Below, one piece after another: positions 33,597 through 34,908 of a stretch of DNA of 64,000 nucleotides (position 1 is its first letter; each line of letters starts with the position of its first letter). The notes beneath the pieces were generated by a model. The model worked only from the letters and a program-made list of their open reading frames with translations, ran no database searches and had not been told where the DNA came from. The translations under genes were made by a program, and so were the position numbers. The DNA is from an uncultured Selenomonadales bacterium (GTDB lineage: Bacteria > Bacillota > Negativicutes > Selenomonadales > Selenomonadaceae): contig CALEPR010000036.1 in NCBI GenBank assembly GCA_937910665.1, forward strand, positions 1,198 to 65,197, written 5' to 3'.

Positions 33597-33875
33597 TTAT
33601 TTAATTTCGACTTTCGCGCCGACTTCTTCGAGTTTGGCTTTGAGGGCTTCAGCGTCAGCCTTGGAGATTTTTTCCTTGACAGCCGCAGGAGCACCGTCGA
33701 CGAGGGCTTTGGCTTCCTTAAGACCGAGACCGGTGGCTTCGCGGACGGCTTTGATAACCTTGATTTTTTCAGCGCCGACTTCAGCGAGAACAACGTCGAA
33801 TTCGGTTTTTTCTTCTTCTTCAGCGGCGGCGGCAACGGGCGCGGCGGCGGCGACTGCTACTGGAGCGGCTCGCGC
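33597..33875 (-). pseudogene. rplL: Ribosomal protein L7/L12, C-terminal part only (N-terminal domain missing)
   Basis: The Ala-rich hinge plus C-terminal domain ([42 protein letters not shown]...KVEIK) is intact. The ~35-aa N-terminal dimerisation domain is replaced by unrelated sequence at ~33,870-33,885. Confidence 0.8.
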
Positions 33876-33879
33876 TACT

Positions 33880-34170
33880 TTCTTAGGCTCCAGCGCAAGG
33901 GGCACGGCGGCAAAGACGCCGCGATACCCCTGCGCGAAGACCTCGGGCAGGAACTCATGGCCTACATCGGCACGGGAAGCGACAAGCAGCTGCCCGTGTT
34001 CCGCTCACTCTCGACTAAGAACGGCAGCCGGTGCGTGCGGCTGACCGCCAATGAGGTGGGCATGATCGTGCGCCGCCGCATGCAGGAGGCAAGGATCACC
34101 GGCCCGCAGCTGTCCCCCCACTCGCTGCGCCATACATTCGCCTGCGACCTGGTCGACGAGGGCATGATCG
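33880..34170 (+). pseudogene. Internal fragment of a tyrosine recombinase/integrase
   Basis: The reading frame gives [15 protein letters not shown]...LSPHSLRHTFACDLVDEGM (the KG.K.R.PL block and the HxLRH box). The N-terminal domain and the distal LLGH...Y catalytic region are absent. Confidence 0.65.
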
Positions 34171-34908
34171 ATGAGAAGAAGGCCGTTTCCATGATCGATC
34201 CGCGCAACCTTGACACCCTGCTCCATCCGCAGTTTGATCCTGCTGCGCTGAAGAAGGCTCTTCATGAGGCTGTTCCTGAGCGGAAGAGTTCGCCGGCAAA
34301 ACCCTGGCGGTTCTTCTTATGGTGCCGTCAGGAGCTGTGCGGGTGGTAACCTGAATGGTGGGATGGGTCTTCTTCGGTGCGGGGATTTCCTCTTCCGCGG
34401 GAGCTGCCTCTTCCGTGGGAGCTTCCTCCTGTGCGGGGACTTCCTCTTCCGTGGGAGCTGCCTCCTCCGCCGCTGCTGCAAGAGCGGCAACAGCTCTGTC
34501 TATCTGCGACTCAACGGACTCGGTTTCAGGCTCCTGCACAGCAGTTTCGTCCGCTTCCTCATTTATAATATCCTCTGCCGGATCAGCGTCCTGCGCTTCG
34601 GAGAGAGCTCCTGCCGCATCATCAGCCTTTGCAGAGAGCTGATCCTCCGCCTCCATAGCGGCGTCGAGCTCACTGATGATCTCTGCCGCAGCGGAATGCT
34701 TATTCTCCTTCACCTTGCGTATGCGCTGAGCGATCCTGTCCGAGAGCTCGCTTTCCCACTCGCCTGTGCCAGAGGGCTGCTGAGGTGCCGGTGAGACCGC
34801 GGTCTCAGCCTGTTCCTCCGGTGCGGAGGTATGGATAGATTTTTTAATAGCATTTATTCTATCGGCTCTGCGCTGAGTTTCCGATAATTCATTCTGATTT
34901 TCGCTCAT
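34096..34908 (-). CDS. Acidic low-complexity protein; 3' part probably not native
   Basis: A credible N-terminus (MSENQNELSETQRRADRINAIKK) leads into a Glu/Ala/Pro-rich body. The last ~40-60 codons read antisense through the integrase fragment, so the true C-terminus is probably lost. Confidence 0.45.
   Translation of the reverse strand: MSENQNELSETQRRADRINAIKKSIHTSAPEEQAETAVSPAPQQPSGTGEWESELSDRIAQRIRKVKENKHSAAAEIISELDAAMEAEDQLSAKADDAAGALSEAQDADPAEDIINEEADETAVQEPETESVESQIDRAVAALAAAAEEAAPTEEEVPAQEEAPTEEAAPAEEEIPAPKKTHPTIQVTTRTAPDGTIRRTARVLPANSSAQEQPHEEPSSAQQDQTADGAGCQGCADRSWKRPSSHRSCPRRPGRRRMYGAASGGTAAGR

Follow-up and report, generated by a model that had tools for sequence, protein, structure and literature searches.

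Sequence shared between genomes is a documented source of error in metagenome assembly, where k-mers common to different organisms lead assemblers to build chimeric contigs (PMC7299287). The DNA analysed here (the window) comprises 64,000 nucleotides (nt) of contig CALEPR010000036.1, deposited in assembly GCA_937910665.1 as part of the genome of an uncultured Selenomonadales bacterium. It contains a seam at which a fragment of the ribosomal protein gene rplL, an internal fragment of a tyrosine recombinase (integrase), an internal fragment of pyruvate phosphate dikinase (PPDK), a 141-nt low-complexity block and the truncated gene of a sortase-domain protein follow directly on one another. We conclude that the window is very probably a misassembled, chimeric metagenome contig joined in silico. 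Its two long segments come from two unrelated rumen bacteria, differ in composition and are each coherent within themselves; the genes at the seam are truncated and, for most of them, native continuations exist elsewhere; and the joined form is absent from the independent collections searched. The seam has no biological function and is not a biological junction.

GC content is approximately 0.40 over 1–33 kb and 0.52 over 34–64 kb, with the step placed at 33.6–33.9 kb (at 100-nt resolution), and GC content at third codon positions (GC3) is 0.35–0.43 in 21 genes of the left half compared to 0.45–0.73 in 20 genes of the right half. The correlation of tetranucleotide profiles between 4-kb chunks is 0.95 (0.93–0.97) within the left half and 0.82 (0.74–0.89) within the right half, compared to 0.37 (range 0.22–0.55) between left and right, and the sharpest 3-kb versus 3-kb tetranucleotide contrast of the whole window lies at ~33,750. 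A preliminary description of this DNA, made from its letters only, had reported an abrupt break in composition and codon usage at this point and proposed that the halves be compared by tetranucleotide profile and assigned taxonomically one by one. The break is borne out by GC, GC3 and tetranucleotide content alike, and taxonomic assignment places the left half with Selenomonadaceae (Quinella-like) and the right half with Ruminococcus.

The left donor (1–33596) is assigned to the Selenomonadaceae or their Quinella-like relatives (Negativicutes) by composition, profile matches and protein relatives. Its genes encode PFOR, a flagellin of 738 amino acids (aa), Der, GatA, IspG, a MacB-type permease, ZnuA and, as the last intact gene before the seam (32090–33496), a membrane protein matching Pfam GT_STM0557_N (the GT gene), whose relatives are 50–78% identical and, where named, belong to Selenomonadaceae or Quinella metagenome-assembled genomes (MAGs). 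The right donor (34889–64000) is assigned to Ruminococcus (R. flavefaciens group, Clostridia) by protein and DNA relatives and by composition, and encodes CinA, ThiI, IscS/NifS, YfhO, SpoVG, MurC, LexA, ZapA, MreBCD, PBP2, pyruvate formate-lyase (PFL) and a GGDEF protein. Its MreC is 75–81% identical to proteins of R. flavefaciens and Ruminococcus sp., and 99% identical to one encoded on a 196-kb ENA contig. Both halves are core chromosome, that of a diderm Negativicute on the left and that of a monoderm member of the Clostridia on the right, and single-copy core genes are present in both. Since NCBI taxonomy places the two donors in the phylum Bacillota but in separate classes, the join is an inter-class one and not the inter-phylum junction that had been suggested. 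A protein of the left half (P0001) and one of the right half (P0121) each lie on a record of 66,658 bp; we read these two records as one and the same, so that the seam falls inside a single deposited contig and not between records.

At its left edge the seam cuts rplL. The piece present (33597–33870, minus strand) encodes the hinge and the L7/L12 C-terminal domain (Pfam PF00542, 6e-30). Loss of the N-terminal domain, already noted in the preliminary description, is confirmed both by Pfam, which recovers the Ribosomal_L12 C-terminal domain only, and by contigs from four unrelated metagenome runs (X1–X4). These match the window as far as 33870 and then read GCGGAAACGCCGAATTTTTCTTCCATCGCC / GCGGAAACGCCGAATTTTTC..., the reverse complement of which supplies ...AMEEKFGVSA, with which the missing domain closes. 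Native rplL and the window part exactly at 33870|33871.

The integrase piece begins at this break and runs on the opposite strand (33871–34137, plus). It had been recognised from the outset as an internal piece of a tyrosine recombinase without the catalytic tyrosine region, and this holds: the match covers positions 60–145 of the 172 in Pfam PF00589 and includes a ten-residue box and, further on, the HSLRHTF box, while the N-terminal domain and the LGH...Y region that bears the catalytic tyrosine are absent. The R-H-R-Y catalytic set is incomplete, the sequence turning into PPDK after HSLRHTFACDLVDEG. Among PDB chains the piece resembles XerC-like 4a8e (1.8e-8), and its nearest relative in an exhaustive HMMER search of 1.84e9 representatives is 54% identical. 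A word-indexed protein search gave no candidate donor, IMG/VR had no relative, none of the metagenome runs searched contained the piece, and the best match in a phage collection was a Gordonia phage integrase with only 36% identity. A GC3 of 0.85 and a codon log-likelihood ratio (LLR) of -44.5 mark the piece as foreign to the DNA on either side. It plays no part at the seam and is a bystander scrap among several unrelated ones, given that its tyrosine region is missing and that it is linked to the PPDK piece by an ACDLVDEG string which the two apparently share by chance.

The PPDK piece (34138 to ~34259, plus strand) encodes ACDLVDEGMIDEKKAVSMIDPRNLDTLLHPQFDPAALKKA and was recognised by phmmer against PPDK chains in PDB, aligning to residues 339–388 of the Clostridium symbiosum enzyme (1dik, 1kbl; E = 4e-10). 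Many metagenome contigs match 34138–34237 only and continue unlike the window at both ends, so that in several runs native PPDK parts from the window exactly at 34138 and at 34237/8. A string spanning 34238|34239 had no match in JGI metagenomes, a result that is uninformative as to the PPDK donor. The GC3 of this piece (0.79) lies outside both flanks, as does that of the integrase piece, and at least three or four donors must therefore have contributed to the window.

The PPDK piece also accounts for a 10-nt direct repeat to which the preliminary description had drawn attention. The two copies of CATGATCGAT are indeed present (at 34163 and 34190, 27 nt apart, compared to 0.17 expected; two copies were reached in one of 100 shuffles), but there is no break at either, and both lie within the continuous PPDK frame, where they encode parts of G-M-I-D and S-M-I-D. 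Coding sequence and codon choice gave rise to the repeat, which is neither an att site nor a recombination scar. The same frame contains GATCGATC (34193–34200), which resembles a filled-in Sau3AI junction of the kind produced by Hi-C or 3C ligation; this origin was considered and rejected, as the string is part of the PPDK reading (ATG ATC GAT CCG, encoding MIDP) and no signature of a restriction site is present at the other breaks.

To the right of PPDK lies the 141-nt block (34239–34379), low-complexity sequence coding on the minus strand (..PKKTHPTIQVTTRTAPDGTIRRTARVLPANSSAQEQPHEEPSSAQQ) and recognised by its match to a 223-nt contig from bioreactor run X2, which agrees with the window at 140 of 141 positions. 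Natively this contig does not run leftwards into PPDK; it parts from the window exactly at 34239 and reads ...GGGCTGCCCGG / ...CAGGCTGTGAAGCAGCTTTGGGCTGCCCGG. The block was found in X2 only. It is absent from two independent Ruminococcus contigs (L001 and L002), which carry a lysine-rich linker, transmembrane helix and sortase domain in its place. No X2 contig covers 34389–34431 at 92% identity or above, and at 90% there is only trace depth (0.63) over 34371–34421.

L001 and L002 also supply the native form of the right flank, being 98% identical in DNA to the window over 34390–37423. In both contigs the gene that follows CinA is complete and encodes 526 aa, comprising an acidic N-terminus, the linker, the transmembrane helix and the sortase domain, of which the window retains the N-terminal ~170 codons (34380–34908, minus strand; identified by the full gene in L001 and L002 and by Pfam Sortase). 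The acidic open reading frame (ORF) of 270 aa that had been described as running antisense into the seam (34096–34908, minus strand) does so, and consists of this N-terminus reading on into foreign DNA. Identity to the Ruminococcus contigs is secure only from ~34390 rightwards (the BLAST end point is 34390) and decays within an 18-nt tandem array of 4.6 copies, which encodes acidic EEAPxE repeats (34387–34470, minus strand; Tandem Repeats Finder, TRF). A closer Ruminococcus strain across the seam was sought by way of IscS, and this look-up yielded just a 3.5-kb contig ending in ThiI. The array itself is a fast-evolving repeat: neither its copy number nor its sequence is the same in the window as in the 98%-identical strains (L001 2990–3060, and L002).

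Three truncated genes had been counted at the seam in the preliminary description. Truncation stands, and the number is at least four, the PPDK fragment and the 141-nt block having been missed. The intervening pieces are 100–300 nt long (~120–315 nt including overlaps), and the segments at which they meet, of ~20–26 nt, appear to be compatible with the sequences on both sides. The clearest case is the join between PPDK and the 141-nt block (J4, 34239–34259), a string of 21 nt, CCTGCTGCGCTGAAGAAGGCT, which lies within the X2 contig and at the same time encodes PAALKKA in the PPDK frame, the correct continuation of that protein (PAALKA in C. symbiosum); donor DNA supports it on one side and PPDK homology on the other. 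The join between integrase and PPDK (J3, 34138–34163, plus strand) spans ~26 nt encoding (F)ACDLVDEG. PPDK contigs from X3 and X4 start to match at 34138, while integrase homology reaches 34163–34178 (residues 116–121), and because the two overlap, these ~26 nt could belong to both donors: the integrase family consensus is HSLRHTFACxLVxxG, the window reads HSLRHTFACDLVDEG and PPDK reads IACDLVDEGMI. The join between rplL and integrase (J2, 33849–33870) is weaker. Here ~19–22 nt are compatible with the rplL hinge on the minus strand and with the GD....G motif of integrases on the plus strand, as integrase alignments begin at query residues 12–13 (nt 33849–33852, with the invariant Asp at nt 33852) and the start of the motif GD....G..Y.L.LQRKGH thus lies inside DNA that the rplL contigs also own. 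The last join (J5), that of the block to the Ruminococcus gene, is likely to lie in or beside the 18-nt array, somewhere within 34380–34458.

The joined form was found nowhere in the collections searched, which is how its absence is to be read and not as proof that it does not exist. Of the 31-mers sampled over 33500–34500, at most 14% occur in any one run, and none of the contigs examined from five runs crosses any of the breaks. The rplL/integrase junction was found in no run or collection searched, and the J2 string had no match in GTDB representative genomes, JGI metagenomes or IMG/VR. Look-ups of exact proteins, for the left-flank gene with two alternative starts and for CinA, likewise gave no entry. 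The selenomonad flank, too, was found in none of the metagenome runs searched.

We propose that an assembler connected two genuine genome segments, one Selenomonadaceae-like and ending in or just before rplL, the other from Ruminococcus and ending in the acidic tandem repeat. The bridge would have consisted of low-coverage islands of reads that came from other organisms and were strung together, namely the integrase fragment, the PPDK fragment and the 141-nt block, with each link made where unrelated sequences chance to share ~20–26 identical bases. The series of such strings, each apparently compatible with two donors, points to overlap joins made in silico at k≈21, and the links would be of the kind expected from a de Bruijn graph with k of 20–21 or from a minimum-overlap rule. 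The long segments probably ended at typical assembly breakpoints, a ribosomal gene highly conserved among many species that occur together on one side and a strain-variable tandem repeat on the other.

Several points weigh against this proposal. Joining by an assembler at small k, and with it the in-silico origin of the contig, is something we infer from the anatomy of the seam and have not seen directly in reads. At J3 and J4 the right edge, and at J2 the left edge, are predicted from protein homology rather than from donor DNA. The overlap at J2 has only moderate support compared to J3 and J4, from a single invariant Asp and a pair of Gly residues, and J5 is not placeable more finely than the interval given above. 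The 141-nt block might be a further scrap, as the proposal has it, or else a native strain variant of the Ruminococcus gene. The rplL piece, finally, may be a separate scrap rather than the end of the left donor, which would leave the verdict on the window unaffected.

We lean towards the rplL piece being native to the left genome, with rather modest confidence. The lean is due to the fact that ribosomal genes often have an atypical codon bias. The piece has a GC3 of 0.505 and an intermediate codon LLR of -8.6, which falls below all 92 chunks of the left genome (minimum +9.6) and counts against a native origin. In contigs of other organisms, similarity to the window ends exactly with the stop codon (33597), and the four runs have four different downstream flanks, as natural divergence of flanks would give; this is in keeping with native rplL. 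A bidirectional intrinsic terminator (33526–33568, both strands; hairpin ATCCTG..CAGGAT with a T-run on each strand; -20.2 kcal/mol, z -2.9) lies 40 nt beyond the stop codon, where the GT gene and the rplL piece converge, and its position likewise favours rplL as the native end of the left genome. On the other side, four relatives of the GT gene carry TruA, a histidine kinase, a second GT gene or an unidentified ORF downstream and never rplL, synteny not being conserved among these relatives, and rpoB follows rplL in several Negativicutes, though not in a Selenomonas MAG. Among the GTDB matches listed for rplL, relatives reach at most 86% protein and 76% DNA identity and mix Clostridia with Negativicutes. 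Matches to rplL of at least 97–99% in runs without the left flank were considered as an argument for foreign origin. The argument was rejected, as the DNA of strongly expressed ribosomal genes is conserved far beyond the genome average and the four flanks differ.

DNA of the rplL C-terminal domain has matches of 95–99% and above in many short contigs from rumen, gut and bioreactor metagenomes, at up to ~1900x word depth, and the downstream flanks of these contigs are all different. Such strong conservation across species makes it an inter-genome repeat of the kind that fragments or mis-joins assemblies. In the AT-rich spacer beside the piece, the motif ATTTAATTT(T)CGA occurs at 33582–33594 and again at the end of rplL (33600–33611), TRF reporting a 14-nt period in 33564–33612. 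The recurrence is probably due to chance in AT-rich DNA; the motif sits exactly where the left genome and rplL would be joined, were rplL foreign.

Other origins for the seam have to be set against assembly error. A physical chimera formed in vitro, whether by blunt or TA co-ligation during library preparation, by template switching in the polymerase chain reaction (PCR) or by branch migration in multiple displacement amplification (MDA), could have bridged the contigs as a single molecule, possibly a long read. Truncation of genes, a foreign composition and a lack of matches in other datasets would likewise follow from it, and PCR jumping can use ~20-nt terminal complementarity, which is compatible with segments shared by two donors. 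However one molecule would have to undergo three to four independent joinings in the space of ~500 nt, at a shared string of ~20–26 nt every time, and the pieces are of a size that resembles short-read islands and not sheared library inserts; blunt ligation, moreover, predicts no shared segments at all. We regard an in-vitro origin as improbable. Concatenation, in which the window would straddle several contigs of a bin or file pasted end to end, is more improbable still: it explains abrupt breaks and a truncated gene at each boundary, but proteins of both halves lie on the 66,658-bp record that we read as one, the intervening pieces (~100–270 nt) would fall below any usual contig cut-off, and the joins seem to show shared segments of ~21 nt instead of arbitrary ends. 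The preliminary description had offered misassembly or concatenation as the simplest explanation, and it is the former that fits.

A genuine biological junction, in which recombinase-mediated or illegitimate recombination, for example, would have fused ~30 kb of Ruminococcus chromosome to that of a member of the Selenomonadaceae, is suggested by the tyrosine recombinase fragment at the seam and by the 10-nt direct repeat. Yet the recombinase is an internal fragment that lacks its catalytic tyrosine region and matches neither flank in GC3, the repeat belongs to the reading frame of the PPDK scrap and lies away from any break, core housekeeping DNA lies on both sides with no mobile-element cargo, truncation affects at least four unrelated genes over 800 nt, and both rplL and the Ruminococcus flank continue natively elsewhere, the junction being found nowhere searched. 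We consider such an event extremely unlikely, and hold equally little credence in a variant in which the molecule is real and arose by fusion or transfer between classes, natural or very recent, that placed ~30 kb of Ruminococcus core chromosome beside Selenomonadaceae core chromosome, with the integrase and PPDK scraps as filler DNA from illegitimate end joining. Misassembly is the explanation we retain.

The consequences are a matter of curation only. The contig looks like one genome and is really two organisms and scraps, and left unbroken it would contaminate any bin and could be misread as recombinase-mediated horizontal transfer between classes. False gene calls arise from the seam, namely an 'L12' of 102 aa, an integrase-PPDK fusion ORF of 130 aa and the 'acidic protein' of 270 aa. 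The contig should be split at 33,870/33,871 (or at 33,596/33,597, should rplL prove foreign as well) and at ~34,380–34,390, and 33,871–34,379 discarded. The anatomy of the seam, with its serial strings of ~21 nt apparently owned by two donors, a ribosomal gene at one end and a tandem repeat at the other, is a clear example for spotting such joins from sequence alone.

Away from the seam, some features of the two halves deserve mention. The flagellin of the Selenomonadaceae-like half (14511–16727, plus strand) is unusually long, with a large central insert, and the same half encodes a 709-aa protein (26155–28284, minus strand) matching flagellinolysin (5.7e-48), a member of the HExxH family of flagellin proteases; the C-terminus of this protein bears RTX-like repeats. 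It also encodes a eukaryote-type two-domain hexokinase (19892–21196, minus strand; Pfam Hexokinase_1, E 1e-51, and Hexokinase_2, E 1e-47), a family uncommon among bacteria. Membrane proteins of the GT_STM0557_N family form two paralogue groups in Selenomonadaceae, ~50–78% and ~36–45% identical to the product of 32090–33496, and at least one contig (L087, 580–3435) carries both in tandem. As regards the marker genes named in the preliminary description, SpoVG, YfhO and MreBCD are present on the right, but LptD is unconfirmed by Pfam or NCBIfam anywhere in the window. Three successive ORFs (6723–10088, minus strand; 518, 365 and 252 aa) without Pfam or NCBIfam match, upstream of an ABC ATPase gene (5275–6012), may have been the source of the LptD/Lpt call. 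In the right half, PFL is seemingly split (57866–60393, minus strand). An ORF of 687 aa (58330–60393) covers profile positions 1–667 of 744 only, without the glycyl-radical domain, and a separate ORF of 79 aa (57866–58105) contains the RVSGYAV glycyl-radical motif, with a Cys-containing ORF of 70 aa (58121–58333) between them. This could be a natural split or spare-part arrangement, or the result of frameshifts.

Compared with known kinds of junction, the seam shares with tyrosine-recombinase integrative elements and prophages a Phage_integrase-family sequence at a composition boundary, but differs from them in that it lacks an intact integrase, att repeats where the composition changes, a tRNA gene or other target, and cargo. 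Neither side is an element, as core genes lie both to the left (Der, GatA, PFOR, IspG) and to the right (MurC, MreBCD, PBP2, IscS, ThiI). With chimeras made in vitro by MDA, PCR jumping or co-ligation it has in common the joining of unrelated genomes and the truncation of genes at the joint. Such molecules, however, typically have one joint each, with no or short microhomology in the case of ligation and frequent within-genome inversions in the case of MDA, compared to the serial joints seen here, each with an apparently shared segment of ~20–26 nt. The closest likeness is to inter-genome chimeric contigs from short-read assembly, which show the same abrupt change in taxonomy and composition and the same tendency to break in a tandem repeat of low complexity and in a conserved gene (here rplL). 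The strings that the partners may share would, moreover, be close in length to the smallest k of common assemblers (20–21). Chimeras of that kind usually make a single switch between related strains or species within a homologous region, whereas this seam connects different classes through a chain of three unrelated scraps, linked by coding strings that apparently coincide by chance. By analogy with them, we regard it as a more extreme but mechanistically identical case of short-read assembly chimera.

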